In this document: positions 4,782 through 43,719 of the stretch, piece after piece | Layout: each line of letters opens with the position of its first letter | How positions within the stretch are numbered: position 1 is the stretch's first letter | Sequence record: MT764208.1 | Source: Escherichia phage JEP8 | Direction: 5' to 3' (one strand) | Length of the DNA stretch: 64,000 nucleotides | Notes under the pieces: generated by a model | The model's database searches: none | Seen by the model: the letters and a program-made list of their open reading frames with translations, nothing else | Told to the model about the DNA's origin: nothing | Translations under genes and position numbers: made by a program

Positions 4782-5021
4782 ATGGTCTATAATATCGTCA
4801 TTGGCGCTTTGTCTAATTTCGGAATGAAATTATTGTCAAAGTTAATTAGTGAAAAGATGCTCACTAAAATTTTCTTCTATTGCGCTCGTCGTCTTGCGGC
4901 TTATACCAATACGCCAATTGATGATCGTTTTGTGGAAGAACTTTATAAGGAGTTTAATAAAGATCAGTCAGAAGATAGTAACGAGCAAGATAAATCTAGT
5001 GATAGTCAACTACCTAAATAA
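4782..5021 (+). CDS. small hypothetical protein (79 aa) between gp37 and holin
   Basis: AAGGAG Shine-Dalgarno 8 nt upstream of ATG; hydrophobic N-terminus, acidic C-terminus; no recognised homolog. Confidence 0.45.
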   Translation: MVYNIVIGALSNFGMKLLSKLISEKMLTKIFFYCARRLAAYTNTPIDDRFVEELYKEFNKDQSEDSNEQDKSSDSQLPK

Positions 5022-5054
5022 GAGTACACTGTCATAGTTATCTTAGGGCATTAT

Positions 5055-5711
5055 ATGCAAGTTTCTGAAAAAGGGAAAGACTTTGCTATCTCAAATGTCC
5101 TGCGCGCTATTTTCACAACTAAAAGCACGGAGTTGCTCGTACTTCGTGTTTTTGCTGCCGTCGTGTTGTCTATATTGGCATTTGTCGTTTATAGTAAAAA
5201 CGAGTTATTTGCGCTTTATAAAGAGACTCGTTATGAGACTTATGCTCACATTCTCCAGGTAGAGAAAGACCGCAATTTTGATAATGCAGCACAGGAGCAG
5301 TTACAGATAGTTCATGTGTCGGCTGATGCCGATTTTTCTGCTGTTTTTAGTTTTCGTCCGAAAAACCTAAACTATTTTGTTGATTTGGTGGCATATGAAG
5401 GAAAGCTACCACATACAATCGATGAAAAGAATTTAGGCGGATTCCCTATCAATAAAACGAGTGAAGAATATCGTAGACATCTTTTAGGTAAATCATATTT
5501 TACCGATAAAGATTTCCAGTATATTCCATCAAGAGAAAAGAAATTAGAGAATATCGATATAGGTTTCATGTATTCTTGTCCTATATTCAATCTCGATAAT
5601 GTCTATTCTGGTAGTATCGCCATTTCATGGAAGAATAAACCGGATATTGACATTGAGAATTTAGATACTCTTTGCAATCAATCTGCCAGAATCCTCGGAA
5701 GGATTAGATAA
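5055..5711 (+). CDS. t: holin t (218 aa)
   Basis: Same length as T4 holin; shared blocks EQLQIVH, SADADFSAV.SFRPKNLNYFVD, AYEGKLP, YSCPxFNLDN, ARILGR. Confidence 0.9.
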   Translation: MQVSEKGKDFAISNVLRAIFTTKSTELLVLRVFAAVVLSILAFVVYSKNELFALYKETRYETYAHILQVEKDRNFDNAAQEQLQIVHVSADADFSAVFSFRPKNLNYFVDLVAYEGKLPHTIDEKNLGGFPINKTSEEYRRHLLGKSYFTDKDFQYIPSREKKLENIDIGFMYSCPIFNLDNVYSGSIAISWKNKPDIDIENLDTLCNQSARILGRIR

Positions 5712-5716
5712 CTTAA

Positions 5717-5748
5717 AGGGGAAGCCTTTCGGCCTCCCCTTCTTTTTA
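5717..5748. terminator. bidirectional rho-independent terminator between convergent genes
   Basis: AGGGGAAGCC-TTTC-GGCCTCCCCT hairpin flanked by A-run and T-run. Confidence 0.55.
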
Positions 5749-5994
5749 TTGGCGCATAGACGCGCCTGAATCACATTTTGACGCTGTATGATGAAAACAG
5801 GTAGCGTACCAGTCATCGGCTTGTTTGTCTTCGTCAGAAAACGCGTAATTTCGTTGTACGCCGTTTTCTACTTTGACCAGTGCAATAGCTGTTTCTGGAA
5901 GATCAATCAATCGGACAAAATCACCATCTTCCCACTCTACACGAGCAATATCATAGCCCATCTCAAAGTATACAATCGCTTGTTCTAATTTCAT
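5746..5994 (-). CDS. hypothetical protein (82 aa)
   Basis: ORF track; first gene of the leftward cluster. Confidence 0.45.
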   Translation of the reverse strand: MKLEQAIVYFEMGYDIARVEWEDGDFVRLIDLPETAIALVKVENGVQRNYAFSDEDKQADDWYATCFHHTASKCDSGASMRQ

Positions 5995-6320
5995 TCTGGA
6001 AACTTCCCGTAAACATTCTCTGCCAACTTACGTGCATCTTTTACAATATCTTTCATGTAATGACTATAATTTTTAGCTAGATCAATGATGCAATCAACAA
6101 AGAAGTAATAGCGTCGCAGTGCGACCAGCTCAACATCTTCAAGATGACCATTTTCTCCAATCGCTGAAATATGTTTAAATTCCTTTCGGATCGCGTCCAT
6201 CGCTACATTAACTTCTTTTATAATATCTTTCGTATTATATGCACCTCGACTAATCAAAATTTTGGTTAGGTCTTCTGCTTTTTCGTGAAAGTTGTCAATT
6301 TCAAACTCGATCATAATCAC
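5991..6320 (-). CDS. hypothetical protein (109 aa), paralog of 6429-6761
   Basis: GAGGTGA Shine-Dalgarno; shares C-terminal ENxxGKF ending with the neighbour. Confidence 0.55.
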   Translation of the reverse strand: MIMIEFEIDNFHEKAEDLTKILISRGAYNTKDIIKEVNVAMDAIRKEFKHISAIGENGHLEDVELVALRRYYFFVDCIIDLAKNYSHYMKDIVKDARKLAENVYGKFPE

Positions 6321-6428
6321 CTCTCATAATTTCACGCTGTTGTTTCAACATTTTTTCGTGGTTTGCTAATTCTATACCTTGTAATAGCATAACCAGTGCA
6401 ATTTTCAATGATTCATCATCTTTCATAA

Positions 6429-6761
6429 TCAAAATTTACCGAAAATATTCTCTGTCATAATTCTTGCTTCGTCGATTATTTTCGTCATGTTCATGGTGTA
6501 GTTATGATCATTTAGTGCTTTAATAACAACGAGCAAGGAATCTAAAAACACTCGATACCGGGTATATTCTACGCTATTTGTGAATACCGATGTTTTCTCT
6601 ACTTTATCGATCAGATAGCCTAAAGCCGATAGCGCCTCGTTTACTTCCCGTGTTACTTTATCGGCGCTAAACAACACCGGATAAAGACGCGGTGTGATTA
6701 ACCGCGCTGCCTCTTTCAATTCGGTCGCTTTCCATGATTCATATTTGTCAAAATTAAACAT
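6429..6761 (-). CDS. hypothetical protein (110 aa), paralog of 5991-6320
   Basis: AAGGA Shine-Dalgarno; similar length and C-terminal motif. Confidence 0.55.
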   Translation of the reverse strand: MFNFDKYESWKATELKEAARLITPRLYPVLFSADKVTREVNEALSALGYLIDKVEKTSVFTNSVEYTRYRVFLDSLLVVIKALNDHNYTMNMTKIIDEARIMTENIFGKF

Positions 6762-6773
6762 TGTATAATGTCC

Positions 6774-7106
6774 TTACAGATGAAAACCTGTTACAATTAC
6801 CGCATCGATCATACCGCTAGGAATAAACGGTTCACCCTCTTTTATTTCAACTTTGAATTGATGCCATTTCGCCAATACTTCTTCCGGTACACCCAGCGAT
6901 TCGGCGTCTGCTTTAGTTTCATCCATAATCCAACTAGGCTGCATGAGAGCATAGTTTACATAGTCCATTTCTGGGGTCATGTCATCAATGTTAATATATT
7001 TGCAGTTGACGCGTTTCAGAATTTCAAATTCTTTATTGTCAACCTGTACCATGTATAATTCAGTAGTTTCTGGAATCACTTCCCACACAATCAGTACATT
7101 TTTCAT
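6774..7106 (-). CDS. hypothetical protein (110 aa)
   Basis: GAGGTGA Shine-Dalgarno before ATG. Confidence 0.55.
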   Translation of the reverse strand: MKNVLIVWEVIPETTELYMVQVDNKEFEILKRVNCKYINIDDMTPEMDYVNYALMQPSWIMDETKADAESLGVPEEVLAKWHQFKVEIKEGEPFIPSGMIDAVIVTGFHL

Positions 7107-7114
7107 AGTTCACC

Positions 7115-7483
7115 TCACTTAACAAAGATTTTCTTTAATGCTTTCAGGATCGTTGCTTCCGGCGCTTCTTCCGGTGGAGGAAGCAATTCTACCACTTCCT
7201 CTTCCAACTCGATATAGTCTACCAGATATTCTACATAGAATGCAAGTGCTTCCATGAAATTAGATGCTACATCCGATTCGCCACACGCGCCCACATGCAT
7301 TGTATAAACATCACTGCGATCAAGTTTGTGGATGCTTCCCAGATAGTTTCGGTTATACCAGACTTCCCACACTTTCAGCTTTCCGGTTTTGGTTGATGTT
7401 TTATAATCGGTTTCGTAATGATGCAATTGACGTTGCAGATCATTGATAATAACACATTTTTCGTAATTGTTTTGAATTTCCAT
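7115..7483 (-). CDS. hypothetical protein (122 aa)
   Basis: GAGGA Shine-Dalgarno before ATG. Confidence 0.55.
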   Translation of the reverse strand: MEIQNNYEKCVIINDLQRQLHHYETDYKTSTKTGKLKVWEVWYNRNYLGSIHKLDRSDVYTMHVGACGESDVASNFMEALAFYVEYLVDYIELEEEVVELLPPPEEAPEATILKALKKIFVK

Positions 7484-7493
7484 GATGTAATCC

Positions 7494-7685
7494 TCACTTA
7501 TCGTTAAGAAGTTCTAAAACTTTCTGTCGTACTTTGTCAATATTAGTTGATTCAAAAACTGTACGGTATCCCCAGCTTTGACCGTATGAGCGGTTGCAAT
7601 CTCCATATCCCCATTGTTCAACCTGATAGTATTCAAGGAATGGGTGCTGCCGAACTATGATACCATCGCGATTAAAAATTACCAT
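7494..7685 (-). CDS. hypothetical protein (63 aa)
   Basis: GAGGA Shine-Dalgarno before ATG. Confidence 0.5.
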   Translation of the reverse strand: MVIFNRDGIIVRQHPFLEYYQVEQWGYGDCNRSYGQSWGYRTVFESTNIDKVRQKVLELLNDK

Positions 7686-7708
7686 AATATAATCCTCACG
7701 TCAACAAC

Positions 7709-7996
7709 TTATTTTCGGTTGTGGTCACGATATGTTTTAAAATATCCCTCGTACCACGGTAAAACATCTGGATTTTTACCACTATACAGACCTTTAACCA
7801 TCATGTCAATAAGGCCATCCGGTGTTTGATAGTTTCCAGCTTTTATAAGCTCTCTGATTAAAATCTCTCTGTATATGTCTTTCGGATCTTCGTAATCAAC
7901 TTGTATTGTGGTTGTGGTCTCATTCAATTTGGTTTCTGGAGTATCTCGCATTGCATCCCACCAATCTTTTGTGACCTTCATGTTATTGAATTGCAT
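7709..7996 (-). CDS. hypothetical protein (95 aa)
   Basis: AGAGGT Shine-Dalgarno before ATG. Confidence 0.5.
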   Translation of the reverse strand: MQFNNMKVTKDWWDAMRDTPETKLNETTTTIQVDYEDPKDIYREILIRELIKAGNYQTPDGLIDMMVKGLYSGKNPDVLPWYEGYFKTYRDHNRK

Positions 7997-8007
7997 AATT
8001 TAACCTC

Positions 8008-8766
8008 TTACTTGCAAACGTATTGGTCTACATCAATTGCTCCACCGAATGTAGGATGACGTTTTTCAAATCGAATAGTTCCGTCGTTTGGTTCGAAAAC
8101 GGAGTATTCATATAGATCTTTCTTGCCAACATTCTTATAAAACCCGCCTTTAGTCATAACGGTTTCTTGTACGTTTGCTTTGTGTACGTTGTATTCATCA
8201 ATGTATACAAAATCAACCATCTTCCCATTTTTAATTGTTACTTTAAGATCACCCGGTTGATTTCCATATTTGGCATACAGTGGCGCTTCTTTAATTTTTG
8301 TGGAAATTCCATCTTTCATACTCCACTCATAACGAACGGTGCATTGATAGGTAAAAGTTTCGACCTTCGGTTCTTCTACCACTTTTGCTTCCTGTTTCTG
8401 TTGTTCTTCTTCAACCTTTGCAGAAGTCTCTGAATCGCTTTCTGACGAGGTTTCTTCTTTAGGTAATACATTCATCAAGTTTTGGATTTGAGCGTTATAT
8501 ACAGCCTCCAGTGGCTGAATCTGCCCGATATTGATCATTGTATCACGAACAGTTTTATTCCAGTTTCGTTGCTCTTGTTTCAGAGACGGATCAATCTTAA
8601 CAGCCTTAACATACACTTCATGAAGTTTAGAGTCCAGTGCGGAGATAGACTCATTAGCACAAATAAACTTCTCTGATTTGGTAGTAGCTTTAGCGCAATC
8701 AAAGGACGCAGCATTAGCACCGAAAGCAGTAGCGGAAAGAACGATAGCAGCGATAATGTTTTTCAT
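8008..8766 (-). CDS. secreted protein with LprI/DUF1311-like (lysozyme-inhibitor-like) N-terminal domain
   Basis: Signal peptide MKNIIAAIVLSATAFGANA then SFDCAKATT..EKFICANESISALDSKLHEVY..QRNW, the two-Cys DUF1311 pattern. Confidence 0.6.
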   Translation of the reverse strand: MKNIIAAIVLSATAFGANAASFDCAKATTKSEKFICANESISALDSKLHEVYVKAVKIDPSLKQEQRNWNKTVRDTMINIGQIQPLEAVYNAQIQNLMNVLPKEETSSESDSETSAKVEEEQQKQEAKVVEEPKVETFTYQCTVRYEWSMKDGISTKIKEAPLYAKYGNQPGDLKVTIKNGKMVDFVYIDEYNVHKANVQETVMTKGGFYKNVGKKDLYEYSVFEPNDGTIRFEKRHPTFGGAIDVDQYVCK

Positions 8767-8800
8767 AATATATTCCTCAATGTTTTGTCTTGATGGGAGT

Positions 8801-8830
8801 ATCTTACTACTCCCTTAATCCTGTGTCAAC
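8801..8830 (-). promoter_or_regulatory. sigma70-like early promoter (-35 GTTGACA, 17 nt spacer, -10 TAAGAT) with GGGAGTA/TACTCCC palindrome flanking the -10
   Basis: Read on - strand; drives 8008-8766. Confidence 0.45.
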
Positions 8831-8836
8831 TAATTT

Positions 8837-8992
8837 TTAAATTTCTTCTACAGTAAAGTCTTCAATGTTGTTGTGCTCGGCGAACGTTGCCAGACCAGCA
8901 TTCCATGCATCATCCTCAGAGAAGAATACACCGTAACGTTCATATCCTTTAGCGCCTTCAAATTTAACCATTAATTTGTGAGTATGTTTCAT
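8837..8992 (-). CDS. hypothetical protein (51 aa)
   Basis: Trimmed to ATG after AGGAG; the ORF-track extension runs through the promoter. Confidence 0.45.
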   Translation of the reverse strand: MKHTHKLMVKFEGAKGYERYGVFFSEDDAWNAGLATFAEHNNIEDFTVEEI

Positions 8993-9022
8993 TTTGATTC
9001 TCCTTCGTTGTCTTGATGAGTT

Positions 9023-9052
9023 TAGTATAGGGGATCGCCGATCCCCTGTCAA
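9023..9052 (-). promoter_or_regulatory. sigma70-like early promoter (-35 GTTGACA, -10 TATACT); spacer is the palindrome GGGGATCGGCGATCCCC with two GATC sites
   Basis: Exact 17 nt spacing; near-identical cassettes at about 49.5 kb and 59.2 kb. Confidence 0.5.
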
Positions 9053-9061
9053 CAACTATTT

Positions 9062-9274
9062 TTAATTTTTACCCGCTCGTGCATTAATACGCATTTTCTG
9101 CATAGCCATGATCTGGCTTACTGCTTCTTCTTTACGTTTTTGCGTGATAACGTGACCAGATTCCGCAAACTCTCCCGCAACTTCTTCTACAATCTCGCGA
9201 ACTTGAGAACGTCCAAAGATGCGGTTTCCTTCGTAGCTCATAAATTCAGTCACTACTTGCTCAATAGATTTCAT
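9062..9274 (-). CDS. hypothetical protein (70 aa)
   Basis: Trimmed to ATG after AGGAGA. Confidence 0.5.
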   Translation of the reverse strand: MKSIEQVVTEFMSYEGNRIFGRSQVREIVEEVAGEFAESGHVITQKRKEEAVSQIMAMQKMRINARAGKN

Positions 9275-9303
9275 GTGATTCTCCTTTCGTTTGGTATGGG
9301 AGT

Positions 9304-9332
9304 ATAATACTACTCCCATTTCTTTACGTCAA
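9304..9332 (-). promoter_or_regulatory. sigma70-like early promoter (-35 GTTGACG, -10 TATTAT inside GGGAGTA..TACTCCC palindrome)
   Basis: 17 nt spacer. Confidence 0.45.
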
Positions 9333-9335
9333 CAA

Positions 9336-9497
9336 CTATTTTAAATTATTTTCGACCTTCACCCATTCCGCGTATTCTTGCGCGGCTACTTTCGGATTTA
9401 AGCCGTCTTCGTACATTGCATCAAGTAATTCTTTGTCGGTGGGCTTATACCCTAGATAAGCCTCCACCTGATTTTTCCAAATTTTATACCAGTTCAT
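9336..9497 (-). CDS. hypothetical protein (53 aa)
   Basis: Trimmed to ATG after GGTGA. Confidence 0.4.
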   Translation of the reverse strand: MNWYKIWKNQVEAYLGYKPTDKELLDAMYEDGLNPKVAAQEYAEWVKVENNLK

Positions 9498-9501
9498 ATT
9501 A

Positions 9502-9774
9502 TCACCAATCAAGAGCGCGTGTCTCTGCGTCTTCCCATGCTTGATCCATAACAGCCTTGAAAACATATTCTAGAGTATCATCTTTAGAGAATCCGAAGAC
9601 TTTAGACGGAATATCTTCGATTGCTACTCCCGCAACTTCTGCATTACGCGCTTGGCAATAATGCAACTCTAAGTTATCGAGATAGCGACCGCCTAATTTC
9701 TCCATATCATCCCAGCATTTCCAGTAACCTACTTTATCTGCAATTGCCAACACTTTGCTGTTTTCGTTGCACAT
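9502..9774 (-). CDS. hypothetical protein (90 aa)
   Basis: Trimmed to ATG after AAGGAG. Confidence 0.5.
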   Translation of the reverse strand: MCNENSKVLAIADKVGYWKCWDDMEKLGGRYLDNLELHYCQARNAEVAGVAIEDIPSKVFGFSKDDTLEYVFKAVMDQAWEDAETRALDW

Positions 9775-9805
9775 CTTTGATTCTCCTTTTGTTTGGTATG
9801 TGTGT

Positions 9806-9834
9806 ATTATGCAATGTTGGATTCTGTAAGTCAA
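9806..9834 (-). promoter_or_regulatory. sigma70-like early promoter (-35 TTGACT, -10 CATAAT)
   Basis: 17 nt spacer; the TGTGTATTATGCA-type -10 region recurs at 23.7, 61.3 and 62.4 kb. Confidence 0.45.
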
Positions 9835-9884
9835 CAACTTTTTAAAATAAAAAAGCCGACCACAAGGATCGGCTTAATAATCAG

Positions 9885-10280
9885 TTACTTACTAAATTTC
9901 TTTTTGGCTTCGTCTACCGCATGAGATGCCAGTACCGCAGCCGCATGTGCACTTTTATCTGTGTTGCAGAGAACGCCCAGATAAACATCACGCCAAAGTT
10001 TAATCATCTCGTAGATCATATCAATATCATTTTCTTGTTTGTTGGCGATGCTATTCGTCGTTATCTGGTAAGGTAACGGCTTGATCTGTACTGGTTCCGC
10101 CATCGGGCTAATCGGCTTCGGATCAGTCATAATAGGTGCTGTTGTGGGTGGTGTTTTCCATACGCCATTATTCCACGGTTTAATCGTTGTATCGTAAAGT
10201 TTATAAGGATTTTTGTCTGGGTCAACCATCCAGGCATGATGAGTACCCAAACCATTTGAAGTAATGCGTCGTTCAGTCAT
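9885..10280 (-). CDS. hypothetical protein (131 aa), proline-rich middle
   Basis: GGAGGG Shine-Dalgarno. Confidence 0.5.
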   Translation of the reverse strand: MTERRITSNGLGTHHAWMVDPDKNPYKLYDTTIKPWNNGVWKTPPTTAPIMTDPKPISPMAEPVQIKPLPYQITTNSIANKQENDIDMIYEMIKLWRDVYLGVLCNTDKSAHAAAVLASHAVDEAKKKFSK

Positions 10281-10482
10281 ACTTTCCCTCCAAAAATTCT
10301 TTCATCAAATAGTCTATCGTTGCTCTGTGTTCTGGTGTGTTTGTGATCTCTGCTAACTTATTCAGAGATTCAATAGTGATCCGGTTGGCTTCTTCCATAG
10401 TCTCAACGACCATTGGCGCAATCTTTTTATTGTTGTACACGAAAGCCACATAACCGCCTTCTGGATATTCTTTCATAATCAA
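10273..10482 (-). CDS. hypothetical protein (69 aa)
   Basis: ORF track; overlaps the gp52 stop. Confidence 0.45.
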   Translation of the reverse strand: MIMKEYPEGGYVAFVYNNKKIAPMVVETMEEANRITIESLNKLAEITNTPEHRATIDYLMKEFLEGKYD

Positions 10483-11843
10483 CCCTTCTTAAGTTCTTTA
10501 AGATCTTTCTTATATTCCTTCATTGCGGTCGTCTTTGTCCAATACTCATATTCACTATGATGTTTATCGGCATCTTTGACCAGTCGACCATACTCTTCTT
10601 GAGTAACGCTATACAATGGCATAGAAACTAGCTTATCGGCGTATGGACGCAGTTTTTCATGTCCATTGATGGATTGCATTACCTCGGCCTTTTTCTTGCC
10701 CTGTAGCTCGATTTCGCCCTTAATTACGCGATCGATAAATTCGGCTTTAGCCATTGCATAATTGTATGCTTCCAGTGTTTCCGCTTGCATCAATTCAATG
10801 CGTTTATCTACATAGCCTAATCGGATTTCGACGAATCGACGGATCAGATCGCTCGCTTTTTCGAATACTTCTACTAAACCACGTTCGTTAACTACTACGA
10901 TATTCTGGGCTACTAACTGCGTTAGTTTAAAATCCTTCATGATTTGCTCATGTCGAGCGGATTCATCTTCGCTTTTGAAATAATCGCGTTTCAGTGTTAC
11001 TTCAAATCTGAATCCGTCCTTAGAGCAACGGTCATTATACGATACAATCAGATCTTTTTCTTCCAGTGCATCCAGTACCGCTACATATTCTTCACGGTCG
11101 AACTTATAAGGAACTTCTGATATTGTCAGTTTAGTCTTGCCGTTTAGTTCATATGTACCCTCAAGAATCACACCATCGCGATCATCTCGCGGGATAACTT
11201 TACCCTTGAATTTCGGGAATTGAACACTAGGTTCTTTATCCAGTTTTCCGGCAAGTGCTAGCTCTGTGCATTCAATAAGGCTTTCCAGTGAATGCGGTAA
11301 AATGTCAGTTTTATACCCTGTAGCAATACCACTAATACCATTAGCTAGTACCATTGGCACAACTGGCAAGTAGAACGCTGGCGGGATGTGTTCCAGATCT
11401 TCGTGCTTAGGTGCGCAATTCATATCTTTATAGATTTTAAAGAAGTTTTCATGCACACGAGCAAAGATATAACGTGCCGCACCTGCTTTCTGGACTAAAC
11501 GCGATCCGAAGTTACCTTGACCGTCAAGCAGTGGAGTATTATTGCTCCATGTATTCGCCATGAGTGATCCGGCTTCTACGGCATTAGTTTCCCCGTGGTG
11601 ATAACCCAACTCAGCAACACCAGATCCAATATCTGCCATCTTACGGAATTTCTTACGGTCGCCTTTACTCTTTTGAAGTGCGCACTCCATAACAAAGCGT
11701 TGCACTGGTTTAAGCCCATCCACTAATTGAGGAATCCCGCGTTCCTCGGCAGAATAGATCGCATATTCCTTAGCTTCATTATGTACAATGCTTTCAAGGC
11801 TGCGGTAAGTAAATGTGTTTACAATTTGACTAATTTTATCCAT
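10479..11843 (-). CDS. 52: DNA topoisomerase II medium subunit gp52 (GyrA-like)
   Basis: KPVQRFV, LGYHHGE, MANTWSNN.PLLDGQGNFGSR, AARYIFARV, HIPPAFYLP blocks match recalled T4 gp52; start set at ATG after GAGGTGAAG. Confidence 0.9.
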   Translation of the reverse strand: MDKISQIVNTFTYRSLESIVHNEAKEYAIYSAEERGIPQLVDGLKPVQRFVMECALQKSKGDRKKFRKMADIGSGVAELGYHHGETNAVEAGSLMANTWSNNTPLLDGQGNFGSRLVQKAGAARYIFARVHENFFKIYKDMNCAPKHEDLEHIPPAFYLPVVPMVLANGISGIATGYKTDILPHSLESLIECTELALAGKLDKEPSVQFPKFKGKVIPRDDRDGVILEGTYELNGKTKLTISEVPYKFDREEYVAVLDALEEKDLIVSYNDRCSKDGFRFEVTLKRDYFKSEDESARHEQIMKDFKLTQLVAQNIVVVNERGLVEVFEKASDLIRRFVEIRLGYVDKRIELMQAETLEAYNYAMAKAEFIDRVIKGEIELQGKKKAEVMQSINGHEKLRPYADKLVSMPLYSVTQEEYGRLVKDADKHHSEYEYWTKTTAMKEYKKDLKELKKG

Positions 11844-11850
11844 CTTCACC

Positions 11851-12213
11851 TCATACACGCTTACAAATCACATTCTTTACTTTATCAGATTTATCAGCCC
11901 AATCCAATAGCCATTTTAACGGAAGGATTGAAACAATAAACGGGGCAGCAATCAAAGCAAACATGATACACCTGATAATCAGGAAAACGCAAGTGACAAA
12001 ACTAGCGATAGTGATCCCGACAAAACAAAATACCATAGAAAACAGAGTAATGATATAGAAAGGCCAGAATACCCACTCCCGCATCTTAACTCCTTTGTAT
12101 TCTCTGAATTGCTTAAAATCTACAAACAACTCTCGGATAGACGCGTACAGGACCGAAAAATCATCTTTCATTGCTCTGAATGAGCAATCTTCTATTTTAG
12201 AATGACCTAGCAT
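11851..12213 (-). CDS. hypothetical membrane protein (120 aa)
   Basis: Long hydrophobic stretches; AAGGCGG Shine-Dalgarno. Confidence 0.5.
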   Translation of the reverse strand: MLGHSKIEDCSFRAMKDDFSVLYASIRELFVDFKQFREYKGVKMREWVFWPFYIITLFSMVFCFVGITIASFVTCVFLIIRCIMFALIAAPFIVSILPLKWLLDWADKSDKVKNVICKRV

Positions 12214-12554: not shown

Positions 12555-12881
12555 TTATTGTTCTACAGTATAACCGTTGTTTTCAAGCCATGCAATAACA
12601 ATCTTTTCGCCAATTTCATCGAGCATTTCATCAGCGCCGTATTCTTTAATGAAAGTCGATGGATCATTATTGCTTACTACGTGCTGGATCACAACATGTT
12701 CAGGAATTGCGTCTAGCAGTTCGCTATGATCATACTCATTAACGATATCTTCAACACTAACATTATTAACCAAATCAACATCATCCATAGTCACAGTAAC
12801 GCGACCGGACGGACGCAATGAATATTGGCTACTTTCAACTTCAACATGTGCACTTTCGCAAGTAACTTTCATATCAATCAT
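12555..12881 (-). CDS. hypothetical acidic protein (108 aa)
   Basis: GAGGA Shine-Dalgarno. Confidence 0.5.
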   Translation of the reverse strand: MIDMKVTCESAHVEVESSQYSLRPSGRVTVTMDDVDLVNNVSVEDIVNEYDHSELLDAIPEHVVIQHVVSNNDPSTFIKEYGADEMLDEIGEKIVIAWLENNGYTVEQ

Positions 12882-12895
12882 AATTAATTCCTCTG

Positions 12896-13888
12896 TTAGT
12901 AATGGCTAAACCCTTCGGTCACATCTTCAACCACATAGTAACGATGACAGCGCATTTTGGCATTCGCATAATCTTTCGGGATACTTACAACGTGACGCGG
13001 ATCAACTTTACATTTAATGATTCGGCCTCGTCCACCGCCATAGTGCGGAATATAGTGTTTCGCTGCAACGTGGAGGCCATTAGAGCAAGTGCGATCATCA
13101 TCCGGGTCCACGTCTTTACGCTTCATTTTAACCGTGCGACCTGGGCTATTATCAAACGTATGCGTAAAGAAATCTTTATAATCAACATCAACACGTTTCC
13201 ATGCATAGAAACAACCATCTTCCACGATCTCAATGTCGTTGTGCTCTAAGAAGTCAAACAGACGATCTACGGCCTTACGGCTAGGGTTTTTCTTGCACTT
13301 CTCAAAGAAGTTCAGATAGTGCGTATATGGCTTATTCTCTTTAATCGACTCCACAACTCGACGAGTCAGATTATTATCAAGAACAATATTATGATAATAC
13401 ACAATACCATTTTCGATACGGAAAGCGCCGTGATAATATACTTCAACCGCTTTCTTAATGTCAATCAGCGTAATAGCTTTGATGAAATCATTATGTTTAA
13501 TCGCTTCCAGTGCTTCATTAAAGTTAACATGCGACGGATCAGCAGTATAAACAATGTCACCACATGTAATAGTAATAAACTTAGTTGAGGCTATTGCTAC
13601 GATTTTTGAGGAAGTAGTCACGGGCTTTTTTGCGCGTTCACCGCCTTTTCCTTTACTGGTTTTACGGCGTGCTTTACGTTTTTCTAGTGCCTTGCGACCT
13701 TCCGCTACTGCGTCTTTCTGAATCAGTAATACACGGGAGGCAGTACGACGAGATACCCCAAATGCTGCCGCAAGTGCTTCGCGGGTAGTAAACTTACCTT
13801 CGCCCCACTGTTTAGCCAGTTTGATTTGTTTTTCAGAATCCAGGCATTGAACGTTACGGTCAGAGACGGTGATTTTTGCTTTAGTCAT
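12896..13888 (-). CDS. rIIB: rIIB protein
   Basis: C-terminal blocks PSRKAVDRLFDFL..DIEI.EDG.FYAWK, TFDN.PG..VKM, CS.GLHV, HPR.VVSIP.DY.DAKMR, YYVVEDVTE match recalled T4 rIIB. Confidence 0.85.
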   Translation of the reverse strand: MTKAKITVSDRNVQCLDSEKQIKLAKQWGEGKFTTREALAAAFGVSRRTASRVLLIQKDAVAEGRKALEKRKARRKTSKGKGGERAKKPVTTSSKIVAIASTKFITITCGDIVYTADPSHVNFNEALEAIKHNDFIKAITLIDIKKAVEVYYHGAFRIENGIVYYHNIVLDNNLTRRVVESIKENKPYTHYLNFFEKCKKNPSRKAVDRLFDFLEHNDIEIVEDGCFYAWKRVDVDYKDFFTHTFDNSPGRTVKMKRKDVDPDDDRTCSNGLHVAAKHYIPHYGGGRGRIIKCKVDPRHVVSIPKDYANAKMRCHRYYVVEDVTEGFSHY

Positions 13889-19125: not shown

Positions 19126-19869
19126 TCATTCTCCGTCAGTTCGTTTCAGGTATTCCAACGCTGCATATAGTCTTTGCGGATCGTCTTTGAACATTCCTAA
19201 TCCGGCGTTACATTTTCCACAAAGAACACCTCTTATCTTACCAGTCTTATGATTATGGTCAAGATGTTTCCACTTTTGGCGTTTTCTCTCGCCGCATCGT
19301 TCATTTATGAATTTTACACCGCATATCTCGCAATTGTCAACTCTGTCTAAAATTTCTAACGCTTCTCGTTTTGTTATTTTTATACCATCTTCGGCGTGGT
19401 GATATGGTCTATCTAGTTCTCGTTCTCGTTTCTCAAACAATCGACACTCATCAGAACAATACTTTTGAGATGCGTTTATTGCAACAAATGGTTTACCACA
19501 TTTAGCGCATTCTCGTTCAATCTTTATGTTTTGTGCCTGATCCAACGATGCGCAACGAGAACAGCAAAATTTATGATAGCCTCTAGAGTATGTATGATAA
19601 TTTACAGGATTTGGGCATCTTGCACATTTAACTATTCCTGTTATTCCGTGGCGCAATCTATAAACAGCCTCGTTATATGGTTGTTGATTTCTGAGACCTC
19701 CATTACAGAACTTAAACTCATTCCTTATAATCTGAAATTCCGCAGGATACAATTTTTCCATTTCTGGAATTTTATTTTCTTTAAAAAGATTTGAGTTTAG
19801 TCTATTTCCGCTTTTCGCCTCCAGAACATCAACAATAAACTTTTTGATGTTCACTTTTTCTCTCTCCAA
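19126..19869 (-). CDS. putative homing endonuclease: zinc-finger N-terminus plus endonuclease VII-like domain (start TTG/GTG uncertain)
   Basis: Several CxxC pairs; C-terminal HLDHNHKTGKIRGVLCGKCNAGLG matches the endonuclease VII/HNH motif. Confidence 0.6.
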   Translation of the reverse strand: MEREKVNIKKFIVDVLEAKSGNRLNSNLFKENKIPEMEKLYPAEFQIIRNEFKFCNGGLRNQQPYNEAVYRLRHGITGIVKCARCPNPVNYHTYSRGYHKFCCSRCASLDQAQNIKIERECAKCGKPFVAINASQKYCSDECRLFEKRERELDRPYHHAEDGIKITKREALEILDRVDNCEICGVKFINERCGERKRQKWKHLDHNHKTGKIRGVLCGKCNAGLGMFKDDPQRLYAALEYLKRTDGE

Positions 19870-24319: not shown

Positions 24320-24838
24320 TTAGTAGCCGCGTTCTTGACGGGCGAAGTTTTCAGCATTTTTCAGATAGTACAGAATAAAGAGTTCTTGAGCGTCAATACC
24401 CAGCGGGATCATCTTTGACAGAATGAAGTGGATCGCGTCCACAAATTCAAATTTCACTTCAAGCTGATCTTCTGGTGACAGTTCAGAGAATTTACGCGCT
24501 CGCGCTTCCCCGTGGTTCTTTTTCCACATTTTCCAGATTGCACTTGCATCTTTACCATTGGACATTCCACCCAGCGATGTGTAAAGCTCTCGTGTTTCGT
24601 CTGCGATAGCGTCATCCATCCGTTGCATCCAATCCAGCATTTCACCGCAAGTCTCTAGCTTAGTTGGATTTGGGACCCAATCAAATTTTTCGGATAATGC
24701 AACCTGTAAACCAGTTTGCATTTCGAGCATCACCTGAAACGGATCTTTACCTTCTGCAATCGCGTGATGATATGCGGCGATAGCCGCGTCAATATTTTTT
24801 TCGTTAACCAGACCAGCACAAGAATTAAATTCTGACAT
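24320..24838 (-). CDS. 56: dCTPase gp56
   Basis: DPLQVML.MQ, PDKLET.G, FRELLTSLG.MS, ASA.WKKW, MSPEDQLE.KFE.VD.FHF, YYLKN.ENFARQ.RGY match recalled T4 gp56. Confidence 0.85.
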   Translation of the reverse strand: MSEFNSCAGLVNEKNIDAAIAAYHHAIAEGKDPFQVMLEMQTGLQVALSEKFDWVPNPTKLETCGEMLDWMQRMDDAIADETRELYTSLGGMSNGKDASAIWKMWKKNHGEARARKFSELSPEDQLEVKFEFVDAIHFILSKMIPLGIDAQELFILYYLKNAENFARQERGY

Positions 24839-24852
24839 ATTCACCTCATTAA

Positions 24853-29261: not shown

Positions 29262-29290
29262 ATTTTACTACTTTAATTATTCTATGTCAA
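29262..29290 (-). promoter_or_regulatory. sigma70-like early promoter (-35 TTGACA, weak -10 TAAAAT)
   Basis: 17 nt spacer. Confidence 0.35.
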
Positions 29291-30053
29291 CAAATTTCCA
29301 ATTTGGAAAGTCTGGACACATACAACGACGGCGAACGGTTCCGCGCTCGTTTCCTAGTACCTTAGATACTTCCGATACAGATTTATAGATCACACCATCA
29401 ACAGATACAGCCTTTCGGTCTTTTCTGTTTTGTTTCTTGCTCTTTTCTCGTCTGGCTTCGACATTCTCCGAATCATTCCATTGTCTCTTTGCTGTCTCGC
29501 GGGAAGATATTGTCTTTTGTTCTTTAACAATATCTTTAACAAGTTGTTCTTGTCCTGTTATCTTCGCCCACACATTAACAGACTGAATAGCATTAGCCTC
29601 ACTCATTCCCCAACGTTTACCGGATATATTCTTACGACGAACGCGTAGAAATTCGTTAAAGACTTCTTCGCATTGGTGCATATAATCACGAAAACCATAT
29701 TTCTTAGCCCATGCCTCTTTAATTGCACCAGACATATTTTCGGCAATACGTCTACGCACCCATGCATACTCCTTATTATTGCGACCGTGACTGGTCATAC
29801 ACATCATACGTGCAGCCATAATAAGACCAACATTCTTAGGATACATTTTAGCTAACAATAAGTGAGCGGTAAAGTGTTCCTCCGGTGTCAATGGAACGAG
29901 ATTTTCCTGTTCATCCGTGCCGCCCATACAACGTGGTTTAACGTGATGGATCTCTATGTATCCGGTCGGCTTCTCTCGGTTTCTTGCTCGTTCAATCAAT
30001 CTTTCGTAATGTGTTTTGTAGTTCATGTGATCCTCCATATGAAAAAGGGGCAT
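29277..30053 (-). CDS. free-standing HNH homing endonuclease (true start may be an internal ATG at 30026)
   Basis: EIHHVKPRCMGGTDEQENLVPLTPEEHFTAH is a classic HNH motif; inserted between uvsX and the gene 40/41 block. Confidence 0.75.
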   Translation of the reverse strand: MPLFHMEDHMNYKTHYERLIERARNREKPTGYIEIHHVKPRCMGGTDEQENLVPLTPEEHFTAHLLLAKMYPKNVGLIMAARMMCMTSHGRNNKEYAWVRRRIAENMSGAIKEAWAKKYGFRDYMHQCEEVFNEFLRVRRKNISGKRWGMSEANAIQSVNVWAKITGQEQLVKDIVKEQKTISSRETAKRQWNDSENVEARREKSKKQNRKDRKAVSVDGVIYKSVSEVSKVLGNERGTVRRRCMCPDFPNWKFVDIE

Positions 30054-30077: not shown

Positions 30078-31148
30078 TTATGCTAACATATCCTCGACTT
30101 CTTTGTCAACTGCTTCGTCGCTGATAACTTGACCTAACTGATAGTGATCGTTGATCGCTTTCTGGAAGTGTTCATTGGTCAGAAGTGGTTTCCAAAAATC
30201 AACACTATCCGTTTCTTTAGCGCGGAACTTGCGGTCTTCGGTTTCCATTTCTCCTGTTTCAGCATTCAGGATTGAGCGAGAATACCAACCATTCGACGGT
30301 TTAACAATCCAACCCAACTCGATAGCCAGTTCAAGCAATCCAGAGTAAGGATCAATGCCACCGCTAAAGGTTACGCTAATCGGGAACTTCGATTTTTCTT
30401 TAACGGTTCGTGATTTTTCCGCATTCAGGATAAAATCATAACCAGTAATTTCGGTTCCTTCTTTCTGCTGACGACGGCTAATAATGAATACTTCGTTTGC
30501 ACTGTACATACCACCAGTACCACCCGACATAATCTCTTTCGGATACAGAGACATTTCAGAGTAAGTATGGTTAATAGCGATGCACGGGATATCATTCATA
30601 GTCAGATAAGGTGTCATCATACGGAACAAGCCTTTAAGTGCTTTAGCTCGCGTCATATCCTGCGCTGATTTCTCATTAATCGCGTCTTCAACTTCTTTTT
30701 TGCTTGCCAAGTTACCGATTGAGTCGATAAAGATGATCACTTTATCTTCACGGGTAATTTGCTCAAGCTGGTTCATGATTTCAAATTTAAGTTCTTCGAT
30801 GTTCTTGATTGGAACATGCACCACGCGATCAGGATCTACACCCATAGATGACAGATAAGCGGACGTAATACCGAACTCAGAATCAAAGAACAAACACGCC
30901 GCATCAGGATTCTGTTTCATGTATGCACTAACACAAGTTAATCCCATGTTTGATTTAAAGTGCTTAGACGGACCAGCAAAGAAAATCAGACCAGATTGAA
31001 AGCCCTTTTTAAGATCACCTGAAAACGCAATATTCAGCATCGGGATCTTAGTGCGAGTATTTGTTTTTTCGTTAAAGAAGCTGGATTTAGACAGTACCGC
31101 AGTAGTTTTCAGGGTAGAGTTCTTTTTCAGTTTTTCCAGTACAGACAT
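30078..31148 (-). CDS. uvsX: UvsX recombinase (RecA-like)
   Basis: RTKIPM.NIA.SG, SGL...AGPSK.FKSN.GLT, FYDSEFGIT.AYL.SMGVDP.RV.H, IDS.GNLASKKE.EDA.NEK, CIAINHTY, KSRTVKEKSKF, GGIDPYSGLL match recalled T4 UvsX. Confidence 0.9.
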   Translation of the reverse strand: MSVLEKLKKNSTLKTTAVLSKSSFFNEKTNTRTKIPMLNIAFSGDLKKGFQSGLIFFAGPSKHFKSNMGLTCVSAYMKQNPDAACLFFDSEFGITSAYLSSMGVDPDRVVHVPIKNIEELKFEIMNQLEQITREDKVIIFIDSIGNLASKKEVEDAINEKSAQDMTRAKALKGLFRMMTPYLTMNDIPCIAINHTYSEMSLYPKEIMSGGTGGMYSANEVFIISRRQQKEGTEITGYDFILNAEKSRTVKEKSKFPISVTFSGGIDPYSGLLELAIELGWIVKPSNGWYSRSILNAETGEMETEDRKFRAKETDSVDFWKPLLTNEHFQKAINDHYQLGQVISDEAVDKEVEDMLA

Positions 31149-31159
31149 TATTAATACCT

Positions 31160-31348
31160 CTATTCAGTTAATCCGTAATACTTTAATTGCTTCATTGTTA
31201 TTCGATCTTTGTAGTGCTCTTGAATTAACTTTTTCATCGCATCAACATCGATCGTCACAAATACTTCGTTGCTGTGATTTCCGTGAACTTTCTTGAAATG
31301 CTCTATGCCTTCCTCACGTTCACGTTTAATCTTTTCAATGTCTCTCAT
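31160..31348 (-). CDS. hypothetical protein (62 aa)
   Basis: Trimmed to ATG downstream of hairpin; the ORF-track GTG extension runs into the hairpin. Confidence 0.45.
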   Translation of the reverse strand: MRDIEKIKREREEGIEHFKKVHGNHSNEVFVTIDVDAMKKLIQEHYKDRITMKQLKYYGLTE

Positions 31349-31366
31349 AATATATTTCTCACATTG

Positions 31367-31393
31367 GCGGGTATCGTAACCCAACACCCGCCA
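31367..31393 (-). other. GC hairpin GGCGGGT..ACCCGCC immediately after a promoter -10 (transcript 5-prime stem-loop)
   Basis: 7 bp stem, 13 nt loop. Confidence 0.4.
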
Positions 31394-31420
31394 TTATACA
31401 CACTTTATCTTAAATGTCAA
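31393..31420 (-). promoter_or_regulatory. sigma70-like early promoter (-35 TTGACA overlapping gene 43 stop, -10 TATAAT)
   Basis: 16 nt spacer. Confidence 0.45.
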
Positions 31421-32886
31421 ACAGGTCCGTAAGCGATGCCACCTTTTCATATTGCAGCTTTGCAGCCGTGGTAATGTTCTCCAGTGGTTTGACGAAAGTC
31501 TTATTAAACAACAAAGGCCAGTCTAACCACTTTAACACCTCGCTTTCAATCTCTGGAGGAATACGAGTACCGGACAACCAACCAAAACAGATTTCTCCAA
31601 ACGGATTTCGATCTTTCAGCGGTACAATCATAACCTTCTCGCCTTCACGAATCGGATCTAGTCCGAATTTTCGAGCATTACGATTATAACACAATACACT
31701 CTTAACCGCATACGGACAACCCTTAATCGGATACCCGTTTGAATCGCTGTATTTCTGTAGGTTGTTTGCAGATGATACCGCAGCAACATCAAGATAGTCA
31801 AGTTTTCTAAATTCTTGCTCAAAAATACCGTAGTATTCCTGCAATGACTCTTCACCTTCCTGCAACATACGGCGAATACATTCTTTCAGTGATTTCTGAC
31901 ATGCTTTCGGGGTGGAGCTACGTTGCGTTTCCAAGCCCATGATTTTTAGCTTAGGTTCAGCAAAGCGCGTTCCTTCCATATCCCAAACATTAAGAGCATA
32001 ACGCTTTTTACCAGTCCAGAATCCACCGATACCCGCAGATTTCAATGGAGGACCAGCAATTGCCTCACGGTCCATAAACATCAAGTGCTCATAGTTGTTC
32101 ATGTACTCGCATAACTCGCGATATCCCTCGTCGATAATAGGTTCCATTCGATGTTTACCGAAATTATCAAGGAAGTCAACAAGTTTTTCGGTATCGTCGA
32201 AACGGTCTTCCCCACCAACCTTATCAATAACATTGTTAACCAGCACATAAACGGAGTCAGTATCACAATAACGAACATATGCAAAATCAGTTGTTCCGCA
32301 AAGCTCGTTTAAGTATTCGTTAATCTTACGCTCAATCCACTGAATTGCAAGCTGACCGAACAGTGTGATCGCACTAGCGTTACGGAGATCATAAAAACGG
32401 AATTTAGGATTCCCCAACGCACCATAAAGGGAGTTGATCAAAACTTTTCGAGAAAGCTGGTTTGTATTGCACAAGATCGACTCGTCTTTACATTCATCCA
32501 GCAATTTCTCTAAGGCATCTTTACTTAATTCAGAAAGCATCGATTTAAACGCTTCGTCAAAGTCGTGACGCACTTCAACGCTATAGCTAATGGTTCCCCC
32601 ATAAACATGATTTTCATCGTGTAGAATCGCTTTACAGAGTTCAGCATTGCGATCACATGCCAACATCATGTTTTTGTACTGCTTACGCTGATCGAATACC
32701 TTTTTAATCTCAATCGGTACGATACCATGAATATCTTTTCGATACATCCATCCGTTAGGCGAGCAAGAATACTCATCACTAGGACGTGGTGCAGTTTTAT
32801 TGATATACTCGTGCATCGGTGCAGCATCAAAAGATCCAGCGATTGTTTCCGGCGAAATGTTAACCTGACGGATGATTGATGGATAC
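31410..32886 (-). CDS. 43: DNA polymerase gp43, exon 2 (from second half of motif A, YPSIIRQ..., to stop)
   Basis: In-frame conserved YPSIIRQVNISPETI lies directly upstream of the ORF-track ATG with no start codon; downstream blocks incl. YCDTDSVYV match recalled T4 gp43. Confidence 0.8.
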
Positions 32887-34000
32887 CATTATGTTCAGCG
32901 CGGTTCGCTACTCCCGCGCCCGTTCTCTTGCGAACTGCTACATGTCACCATGTAGATCAGACTATATCACATTCTCATAGAGAATCCTGCCATTTCGAAT
33001 CGCTTGATTCTACTCTACTCGGTTCGTTACCCTTTCGATAGTCGTTGAACAACTGCATCTTTAAGCTCATTTTGATCAAACGGTGTTCTCTTACAGTACC
33101 CGCTATAATTCTTAGCAAAAGGTTTCTTCTTACCAAAGATCTCTTTTCCTGAATTATGTGCTTCAACAAGAAAATTCACCATTTCATCAAATGTGAAACT
33201 TGCAAATTTAGCATAAGTTTCATTACGTTTTGACATTATTTTACTCATAACTTCCGGTCGTTTAGACGCTGAATTTTCGCGTTTCTCGCCAGTATTAAAT
33301 GATACCAACTCACCGGAAACATATCTAGGATCATCACAACTAACTCTAAACCGATTTCCTTCATTATCCTTAACGATAACAGTATTCTTTAGCTTTTCTG
33401 CCATAGAATCAAGACCTTTTCGTATAGTGTCCTCATCAGCCCCGAAATATTTCTTTCCGCTCATATCGGTTCTGGCTTTTCCGGTCTTGTTTTCGGATAT
33501 TTTCAGTCTAACTTCCTCTCGCTTGGCTGGGTTATTGTCTCCAGCGAATGCATCTTTGGTTAACGCCTTCACTTTATCGTCATAAGATCCTCTAGAGATG
33601 AAAGCATATGCTCTCTTGCATTCACCGTTATTGAATATTAAGCACAATAACCGATGCGCCTCGACGTGGTCTTCAAACTTAAGCCTAACAAGATTCCATT
33701 TATCTAACCGATATTCAGGGAACATTGACTTCGGGCATATATGATGCACCTCGGAATATTCTTCACCCTGATACGGATTAGACACCAGTTTAATGTAGTC
33801 GTTTAATGCTTCCTCGTTATGTATTTCGTACTTTCTTAAAATGTCTTTCATCTCGCGCCTCCAATGTATATCAATATCTATATACATTATAAGACACGTT
33901 AGCTCAAAATGCAACTGCTGCTGATTGTCTCCTTAGAGATTTCCCAGCAATTAAGCAGGTTATTCGATCACTGTCACCAGTGAAAGCCCCATATCAGTTT
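32887..34000 (-). mobile_element. group I intron (1114 nt) in gene 43 carrying an HNH homing-endonuclease ORF
   Basis: P (AAUUGCUGGGAAA), Q (AAUCAGCAGC), R (GUUCAACGACUA), S (GAUAUAGUCUG) elements; IGS GGGG pairs with exon CCCU; 5-prime exon ends in U and intron ends in G; P9-like hairpin with GUGA loop. Confidence 0.75.
33027..33851 (-). CDS. intron-encoded HNH homing endonuclease (274 aa)
   Basis: GGAGG Shine-Dalgarno then ATG (MKDILRKYE); EVHHICPKSMFP..WNLVRLKFEDHVEAH HNH motif; 3-prime end overlaps intron R element. Confidence 0.75.
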   Translation of the reverse strand: MKDILRKYEIHNEEALNDYIKLVSNPYQGEEYSEVHHICPKSMFPEYRLDKWNLVRLKFEDHVEAHRLLCLIFNNGECKRAYAFISRGSYDDKVKALTKDAFAGDNNPAKREEVRLKISENKTGKARTDMSGKKYFGADEDTIRKGLDSMAEKLKNTVIVKDNEGNRFRVSCDDPRYVSGELVSFNTGEKRENSASKRPEVMSKIMSKRNETYAKFASFTFDEMVNFLVEAHNSGKEIFGKKKPFAKNYSGYCKRTPFDQNELKDAVVQRLSKG

Positions 34001-43196: not shown

Positions 43197-43484
43197 TTAC
43201 AGCATACTTAATACCGTTTGCCGTGTACTAATCCACATAGCAGAAAGCAGTTCTGGCGTGTGTGGCTGTTTGTAGATATCACGTAACTTTCCGATAGCGT
43301 AGATATACGCATCACGGTTATCATCGATGATAGCTTGTTCAGCCCACCGCTTAAGGCGTGCAATCTCTCGCGAGTTCTTACGCAAGATCTTTTCCGCTTT
43401 CTTAGCGGCTTTAGCCTCTAGTTCTGCTTGTACTTTGTCTACTTCATTCACTGCAATCTTGTCATGCTGTTCATCGTAAGTCAT
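43197..43484 (-). CDS. hypothetical protein (95 aa)
   Basis: AGAGGT Shine-Dalgarno. Confidence 0.5.
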   Translation of the reverse strand: MTYDEQHDKIAVNEVDKVQAELEAKAAKKAEKILRKNSREIARLKRWAEQAIIDDNRDAYIYAIGKLRDIYKQPHTPELLSAMWISTRQTVLSML

Positions 43485-43485: not shown

Positions 43486-43719
43486 TTATTTTACCTCTGG
43501 GATATAATCAATTATTAAAGAAAATTCATCTTCTGATACATTATAGCTATGTGAGATTGTACCCGTCAAGACCTCAAGATCCGGTGATTTGATATTGCAC
43601 GGATCGATAATCACCGGAACGCCGCAATCTCTCAAAAATAATTTGGCGAAATACGGCACGAGGTCAGTTTCAAACTCTGCTTCTTCCAGCAAACGGGAAA
43701 TGTTAATTTTCAATCTCAT
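43486..43719 (-). CDS. hypothetical protein (77 aa)
   Basis: ORF track; overlaps gp55 3-prime end. Confidence 0.4.

Follow-up and report, generated by a model that had tools for sequence, protein, structure and literature searches.

In bacteriophage T4, middle transcription is driven by MotA and AsiA, and gp42 together with the glucosyltransferases makes glucosylated hydroxymethylcytosine (HMC) DNA. Here we analyzed a 64,000-nucleotide stretch of Escherichia phage JEP8 (MT764208.1), referred to as the window, in which a preliminary description had missed motA, asiA, gene 42 and the glucosyltransferase genes a-gt and b-gt at the places where T4 has them. The question is whether these genes are absent from the phage altogether, and which promoters and which DNA chemistry it would then use. 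Our best explanation, in which we have high confidence, is that the window belongs to a "pseudo-T-even" phage of the RB49 type (genus Krischvirus, Straboviridae) lacking both T-even modules, MotA/AsiA sigma appropriation and glucosyl-HMC. The absences themselves are already known and have been a published hallmark of pseudo-T-even phages since 2002 (Nolan 2006; Petrov 2010; Yaung 2014; Desplats 2002, as cited in Nolan 2006).

The T4 positions of the missing genes

The intervals that hold these genes in T4 (Tequatrovirus) are bounded by core genes t, 52, uvsX, 43, 47 and 55, which are shared by both phages with the same orientation. Features of the window described in this text lie on the minus strand unless stated otherwise. 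The first interval has the holin gene t as its left anchor (5055-5711, plus strand), a 218-amino-acid open reading frame (ORF) named after the RB49 annotation of the homologous locus, and gene 52 for the medium subunit of topoisomerase II as its right anchor (10479-11858; 50.6% identical to T4 gp52, E=5e-147). Between them, the ORF list and the RB49 annotation place 15 small ORFs of the early type, 41-252 amino acids long, in one block (5746-10482), where T4 has asiA, asiA.1, arn, arn.1-4, motA and motA.1. About 17 ORFs without resemblance to MotA or AsiA had been described here. The number depends on the annotation, with 15 minus-strand ORFs according to that of RB49 and 16-17 according to other annotators, and the lack of resemblance was borne out: Pfam found no MotA_activ, MotCF or AsiA domain among these ORFs even at E<=1, and profile hidden Markov models (HMMs) of MotA and AsiA scored no better than E=0.5 in the block. 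All 15 ORFs match PHROGs of unknown function, and about 10 of them have no recognizable domain. The 122-amino-acid ORF at 7115-7483 is a homologue of T4 arn.4, the '12.8-kDa' ORF (phmmer E=3.7e-6 to ORF 12631-12960 of the T4 segment, in agreement with a note in the RB49 annotation), which in T4 lies immediately downstream of motA. The interval is therefore positionally orthologous to that of T4, and motA is simply not beside this ORF.

The other two intervals were also as described earlier. Between uvsX (30078-31148; 60% identical to T4 UvsX, E=4e-149) and the DNA polymerase gene 43 (31410-35202), where T4 carries segA, b-gt, 42, imm and imm.1, the sole ORF is 31160-31387, which encodes 62 amino acids from its ATG and belongs to phrog_12120, of unknown function (RB49 annotation). 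The only genes between gene 47 (42081-43106; RB49 annotation of the homologous locus and ORF list) and the late sigma factor gene 55 (43703-44236; 61% identical to T4 gp55, E=9e-69) are the two small ORFs noticed before, which could be identified as homologues of T4 a-gt.4 (43197-43484; tblastn E=1e-12) and a-gt.5 (43486-43719; tblastn E=6e-8), with Pfam domains DUF2654 and DUF5491. In T4 both are located between a-gt and gene 55. Thus arn.4, a-gt.4 and a-gt.5 are in place, and the T4 genes 47.1, a-gt, mobB, a-gt.2 and a-gt.3 are missing from the interval.

Search of complete genomes and relationship to RB49

Proteins from the T4 record were used as tblastn queries against the window and the complete genomes of RB49 and Krischvirus SAP. 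MotA, AsiA, gp42, a-gt and b-gt gave no significant match in any of the three, and the same was found for Arn, Imm, Alc, Ndd, DenB, MotB and ModA. For a-gt and b-gt, no match in these sequences fell below E 0.2, and the only match of gp42 was the thymidylate synthase gene td, which lies outside the window (E=0.006, 23% identity). The controls gp52, gp55, gp33, DsbA, gp56, Dam, DenA, Cd, Srd, ModB, RpbA and UvsX were all recovered, at E=1e-7 to 1e-151; for gp52, gp55, gp56, dam, uvsX, cd and denA the range was E=1e-42 to 1e-151.

A more sensitive comparison employed the MotA HMM, built from 83 homologues, and the AsiA HMM, built from 42 sequences that include divergent cluster representatives from a full scan of 1.8 billion proteins. 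Both were run against all six-frame ORFs of at least 30 amino acids with every HMMER filter off. Only T4 was positive (MotA E=3e-94, AsiA E=2.5e-39). The matches in the window, RB49 and SAP were noise (E>=0.5), except for one 14-bit match to the MotA profile that is discussed below. There was no RB49-type phage among 87 source-named MotA clusters.

The relevance of RB49 and SAP follows from their similarity to the window. Positions 5000-12000 are 97.8% identical in nucleotide sequence to positions 154917-161925 of RB49 (NC_005066) and 98.1% identical to phage G2248. This segment was covered over at least 80% of its length by 57 of the 63 phage records that matched it, and those of the 57 whose name or record taxonomy allowed identification belong to the RB49 type (genus Krischvirus). 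With the 19-kb segment 27000-46000, 58 records reached at least 80% coverage, at 95-99% identity. The window spans the RB49 long-tail-fibre genes, t, 52, rIIB, rIIA, 39, dda, 56, 61, 41, uvsX, 43, 45, 46, 47, 55, nrdD, 49 and dam, and ends at about RB49 position 48 kb. RB49-like phages are characterized by about 40% G+C and by the lack of tRNA genes. The G+C content of the window (40.4%) is the same as that of RB49. With Rfam, no RNA family was found in the window at the gathering threshold; a dedicated tRNA scan was not run.

RB49 and its relatives phi1, JSE, TB34, SAP and G2248 share 97-98% nucleotide identity with this phage, gene order is alike in all three intervals, and the same 15 small ORFs occur between t and 52. 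Like this phage, they are without motA, asiA, 42, a-gt, b-gt, alc, denB, arn and ndd, and have 56, dam, denA, cd, 55 and 33.

Promoters and transcription program

We scanned for Mot boxes with the pattern TGCTTNA-N11-13-TANNNT, using 100 shuffles to obtain the expectation. The pattern was not enriched in the 64-kb window (4 sites vs 2.9 expected, with at least 4 in 34 of the 100 shuffles), while the first 50 kb of T4 had 17 sites vs 3.7 expected, a number not reached in any of 100 shuffles. On the other hand, sigma-70-type sites were more frequent than expected between 27 and 46 kb (70 vs 49.6 +/- 6.9), with the best ones on the coding strand. Two of them match the sigma-70 consensus at 12 of 12 positions. 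One (TTGACA-N17-TATAAT, 35263-35235) is directly upstream of gene 43, and the other (TTGACA-N16-TATAAT, 31420-31393) precedes the 62-amino-acid ORF and uvsX. At the homologous places of both sites, in front of gene 43 and of the uvsX operon, RB49 is annotated with a 'hypothetical early promoter'. In T4, gene 43 is driven from a MotA-dependent middle promoter.

Sigma-70-like sites between t and 52 were not above the shuffle expectation (14 vs 20.3). The five best sites in this interval (9834-9806, 9332-9304, 9052-9024, 8829-8801 and 7809-7781), which match 10-11 of the 12 consensus positions, are nevertheless supported as promoter-like because all are on the coding strand and in gaps between ORFs. 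Just upstream of the 9834 site is a GC-rich, terminator-like stem-loop with a T-run (9853-9875). The two elements together may form a putative terminator-plus-early-promoter cassette of the promoter/stem-loop (PeSL) type, a concept described for T4-like phages (PMC4122927).

The literature on RB49 agrees with these observations. Early and late motifs were found in RB49 but neither a motA orthologue nor a middle-promoter consensus (Nolan 2006, PMC1524935), and, as far as the citation in that paper tells, Desplats 2002 had failed earlier in the same search. According to Nolan 2006 (PMC1524935), T4 has its middle promoters and motA in common only with RB69 and 44RR, and the list of AsiA orthologues in that paper comprises RB69, 44RR, Aeh1 and KVP40 but does not include RB49.

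The preliminary interpretation that this phage has no MotA mode and relies on sigma-70-type promoters holds as a sequence-based prediction, because MotA and AsiA are missing at the profile level, Mot boxes are not enriched, and consensus sigma-70 promoters precede gene 43, the uvsX operon and the small early ORFs. Transcription would then proceed in two temporal classes, early from sigma-70-type and late from gp55-type promoters, as published for RB49, and the two promoter classes to be expected would be -35/-10 and TATAAATA. The late mode is kept, as gene 55 indicates, and the late apparatus gp55, gp33 and gp45 is shared with T4.

DNA chemistry and restriction-site avoidance

To describe the avoidance of restriction sites, palindrome counts were compared with a maximal-order Markov expectation, considering six-bp palindromes with at least 5 expected occurrences. 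Many were wholly absent from RB49 (19 of 60), SAP (20 of 60) and the window (15 of 53), whereas none of 52 was absent from T4 (99 kb). Observed and expected counts in RB49 were 0 vs 65 for TCCGGA, 2 vs 46 for GAATTC, 0 vs 38 for AAGCTT and 0 vs 34 for GGATCC. Among the avoided sites are those of EcoRI, HindIII, BamHI, PstI, KpnI, PvuII, SphI, XhoI, NcoI and SacII. Only 0.3-0.7% of the non-palindromic 6-mers had an observed/expected ratio (O/E) <0.25. The sites GGCC, CCWGG and CCSGG were 2-4-fold depleted in RB49 and the window (O/E 0.28-0.47), as compared to an O/E of about 1.0-1.2 in T4. For GATC the O/E was 1.04-1.06 in RB49 and the window and 0.32 in T4. Strong avoidance in this phage thus concerns type II sites and spares GATC, the reverse of what T4 shows. 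The loss of palindromes, a classical signature of long exposure to type II restriction, indicates that the cytosines are likely unprotected, and GATC is plausibly covered by the phage Dam. We found no published description of restriction-site avoidance in Krischvirus in the literature searched.

Chemical data on relatives point in the same direction. The DNA of RB49 is open to cleavage by HpaII and NheI and contains neither hydroxymethylcytosine nor its glucosylated form (Yaung 2014, PMC4041780). The DNA of TB34, also a Krischvirus, has canonical cytosine, with no modified base detectable by high-performance liquid chromatography-mass spectrometry (PMC13390438). According to Nikulin and co-workers, Krischvirus lacks the genes needed for non-canonical bases and carries out generalized transduction (PMC8056088, PMC12115623). 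According to Table 4 of Petrov 2010 (PMC2993671), gene 42, denB and alc are found in T-even phages, JS98, RB69, CC31, Acinetobacter phages and some Aeromonas phages; a-gt is restricted to T-even phages and b-gt to T4 and CC31, and arn is found in CC31 as well as in the T-even phages. In the same comparison, almost every T4 relative has gene 56 and denA, the RB49 type included.

Both gp56 and Dam had been reported as present in the window, and this was confirmed. The gene 56 homologue, encoding a dCTPase/dUTPase (24320-24844; Pfam dUTPase_2, phrog_173), is 49.7% identical to T4 gp56 (E=1e-51). The dam gene for a GATC N6-adenine methyltransferase (56119-56931; Pfam MethyltransfD12, E=4e-30) encodes a protein 45.9% identical to T4 Dam (E=2e-63) and is the only DNA-modification gene found in the window. 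Among 20 larger window ORFs of unknown function, Pfam detected no glycosyltransferase, thymidylate-synthase or TET-like domain; its matches were a DEAD-like N-terminus in a 489-amino-acid ORF, Endonuclease_7 in ORF 19126-19869 and a Gp38 adhesin.

Some RB49 genes outside the window were considered as candidates for DNA modification as well. The annotation of RB49p189 as 'DNA methyltransferase' or 'C-5 cytosine methylase' is unsupported, as the protein has no Pfam match at E<=0.01, and RB49p143 is a generic S-adenosylmethionine-dependent methyltransferase. RB49 td was rejected as a disguised hydroxymethylase, being an ordinary Thymidylat_synt protein (E=1e-84). At 410 amino acids, this td product shows its Thymidylat_synt match in two stretches, with room for an in-frame insert of about 140 amino acids in the middle of the enzyme.

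The second part of the preliminary interpretation, the possible use of some other DNA modification, finds no support, because RB49 DNA is cut, TB34 has canonical cytosine, and the avoidance of type II sites is extreme. Virion DNA would consist of ordinary cytosine DNA with Dam methylation at GATC, and the phage would cope with restriction by purging type II recognition sites instead of hypermodifying its bases. The RB49-like lineage may never have had the two T-even-specific modules, or may have lost them long ago. Together with 42, a-gt and b-gt, the genes that are meaningful only on HMC DNA (alc, denB, arn and ndd) are absent. The gp56 homologue may be kept as a dUTPase and supplier of dCMP, feeding a route through dCMP deaminase and thymidylate synthase.

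Counter-evidence and alternative explanations

Several points weigh against an RB49-like phage without the two modules. The promoter calls are consensus matches and as such predicted sites. Outside the window, absence of the genes is extrapolated from the literature and from RB49 and SAP, whose complete genomes are about 98% identical to the window. The roughly 10 small ORFs without a domain between t and 52 leave room for a non-homologous regulator. Retention of the gp56 dCTPase homologue is awkward for a phage with cytosine DNA. Finally, a June 2026 paper reports 5-hydroxymethyldeoxycytidine (5-hmdC), alpha-glucosyl-hmdC and BrxU sensitivity for the DNA of Krischvirus SAP, with no identifiable pathway (PMC13390438).

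The first point at which another reading could enter is transcription. We consider it very unlikely that the phage has a functional middle mode that depends on a non-homologous or diverged analogue of MotA/AsiA, encoded among the t-to-52 ORFs or elsewhere. Most ORFs in 5746-10482 have no known function, and other modifiers of RNA polymerase, i.e., Srd, RpbA, ModB and Alt, are kept, which would suit such a mode, as would the weak MotA-profile match (14 bits, E=0.008) in the goF-like ORF 53179-54357. This ORF and its RB49 and SAP orthologues were rejected as MotA. The match spans MotA positions 57-124 only, comprising a wing-like 'GL.EK..G..IT.E' motif and linker, and it lies in a goF-like module that is repeated in paralogues (phrog_8944, phrog_5347, phrog_622), while the MotCF DNA-binding domain is unmatched. 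Furthermore, Mot-box-like sequences are not enriched, the replication genes have full -35/-10 sigma-70 promoters that need no activator, and RB49 has early and late motifs only, as cited above.

The goF-like (comC-alpha-like) modular paralogues are themselves a feature of this genome. They are expanded around the nrd genes (46947-47771, 52630-53124, 53179-54357 and 54414-54998) and belong to phrog_8944, 5347, 622 and 3710; one member is the ORF with the spurious weak match to the MotA profile.

The SAP report raises a different alternative, namely that Krischviruses, including this phage, make modified cytosine by an unrecognized route that is independent of gp42, a-gt and b-gt and might be switchable. 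Of such a cryptic hypermodification pathway, gp56, gp1 and cd would be the remaining partners; it would be switched on in SAP and switched off in TB34 and RB49. If true, this would explain the modified bases of SAP, the retention of gp56 and the sequence differences between SAP and its sibling TB34, to which it is 99.96% identical (PMC13390438). We compared the first 50 kb of these two genomes. All eight substitutions are on the central C of the same motif, CC[C]GG in SAP vs CC[T]GG in TB34, or the complement, a pattern suggestive of cytosine modification at CCSGG; RB49 has the SAP base at six of the eight sites. Apart from these, SAP carries an 83-bp tandem duplication (about 39.62-39.79 kb), and the two genomes differ by one-base indels in homopolymers that break up several genes of TB34. 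No gene gain or other gene difference was found over the 50 kb compared. The CCSGG-specific C/T pattern does not suggest a gene switch but base-calling error, or deamination, at a methylated cytosine in CCSGG.

Other observations also make a cryptic pathway very improbable. The complete SAP genome has no gp42, a-gt or b-gt homologue and no thymidylate-synthase-like gene except td, and the larger unknown ORFs of the window lack suitable domains, as described above. Restriction-site avoidance in SAP is as extreme as in RB49 and unlike the pattern of fully hypermodified T4, which speaks against hypermodification having evolved in this lineage. Purified BrxU cut the DNA of SAP less than any other modified DNA examined with it (PMC13390438), which would fit a mixed DNA preparation.

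The weakest alternative is that the missing genes had moved from their T4 positions to a part of this phage beyond the window, which the preliminary description had left open. It gains something from the facts that the window holds only about 40% of the genome, that accessory genes are known to be shuffled in T4-like genomes and that some Krischvirus genomes exceed that of RB49 by 6-12 kb (G2248, 170.7 kb; JK32, 176 kb), but we regard it as highly improbable since complete RB49 and SAP, the closest complete genomes, have no homologues by tblastn or, for MotA and AsiA, by profile HMM, published gene-distribution tables agree on the absence (PMC2993671, PMC12115623, PMC13390438), and restriction-site avoidance is genome-wide. 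The explanation we retain is an RB49-like phage in which both modules are lacking.

Other genes of the holin t to gene 52 block

The first ORF after holin t (5746-5994) encodes an 82-amino-acid protein resembling Tad2, Thoeris anti-defence 2 (DUF2829; Pfam PF11195, 28.4 bits vs a cut-off of 25, E=2.4e-6; phrog_1048). It is a candidate for a sponge of glyco-cyclic ADP-ribose (gcADPR) in a T4-like coliphage; with phmmer, it matched no PDB sequence. Two paralogous ORFs of phrog_9457, 5991-6320 and 6429-6761, follow (reciprocal phmmer E=4e-6) and surround a 43-amino-acid ORF (6301-6432). The 252-amino-acid ORF at 8008-8766 has an N-terminal LprI (lysozyme inhibitor-like) domain (Pfam PF07007, 26.7 bits vs a cut-off of 22). 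Its hydrophobic N-terminus resembles a signal peptide when the translation is judged by eye, and the product is probably an envelope protein. The t-to-52 interval would be a hyperplastic early region in which every group of small accessory genes has an early promoter to itself. These genes probably serve host takeover or anti-defence, examples being the Tad2-like ORF and the LprI-like envelope protein.

Next to gene 55 is a conserved 489-amino-acid ORF (44277-45746) with a DEAD/DEAH-like helicase N-terminal domain (27.4 bits vs a cut-off of 26). Its homologues in RB49-type genomes are annotated as hypothetical only.

Mobile elements and the intron in gene 43

This phage differs from RB49 in mobile-element content only. 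A free-standing ORF of the homing-endonuclease type (29277-30053; phrog_655) is inserted between gene 40 and uvsX, and a free-standing Endonuclease_7/HNH ORF (19126-19869) adjoins gene 39; neither is in RB49. Conversely, the HNH gene RB49p040, which adjoins gene 47 in RB49, is missing here.

The third addition is in gene 43, which is uninterrupted in RB49 and SAP. In this phage it is split into exon 1 (34001-35202) and exon 2 (31410-32886), which are 99% identical to residues 1-401 and 402-892 of RB49 gp43. The 1114-nt insert (32887-34000) is a group-I-like intron that matches Rfam Intron_gpI over the full model length, at a score below the gathering score (31.1 bits, E=1e-5). It contains an intact HNH homing-endonuclease ORF of 295 amino acids (33027-33914; phrog_12434 HNH). 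The insertion point is exactly between L401 and Y402 in PolB motif A (DLTSL|YPS); the upstream exon ends with U and the element with G. For phage JSE, Petrov 2010 (PMC2993671) noted a putative intron in gene 43 whose homing-endonuclease gene is truncated.

Comparison with other T4-type phages

As compared to this phage, T4 has MotA, AsiA, Mot boxes, gp42, the glucosyltransferases, alc, denB, arn, ndd, imm, motB and modA, all absent here. A parallel is offered by RB43 and RB16 (Pseudotevenvirus), other relatives with unmodified cytosine, which are likewise without motA, middle promoters and 42, keep denA and 56 homologues and, according to the literature, also perform generalized transduction (PMC1524935, PMC8056088, PMC12115623). 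The RB43 genome differs in being rearranged and in keeping ndd, a comparison with this phage that is drawn from the literature.

A laboratory counterpart exists in the T4 dC mutants (42-, 56-, denB-, alc-), in which T4-type replication proceeds with ordinary cytosine after loss of HMC-dependent functions (PMC12115623). The wild-type gene set of this phage resembles that genotype for 42, denB and alc. Whereas T4 dC strains must lose the gp56 dCTPase, this phage keeps a gp56 homologue, so that its activity would have to be compatible with the use of dCTP.

Implications

For this family, the question that is alive is the reported modified cytosine in SAP, and the avoidance statistics argue against its being an evolved property of the lineage. 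RB49-type phages can be cut and cloned, and they are open to CRISPR and to type II enzymes at the remaining sites, which was already recognized. Their generalized transduction matters for phage therapy. More broadly, middle-mode sigma appropriation and glucosyl-HMC DNA are add-ons of the T-even branch and do not belong to the core of T4-like phages. RB49-type phages would instead get by with two promoter classes, ordinary cytosine in their DNA and strong avoidance of restriction sites.

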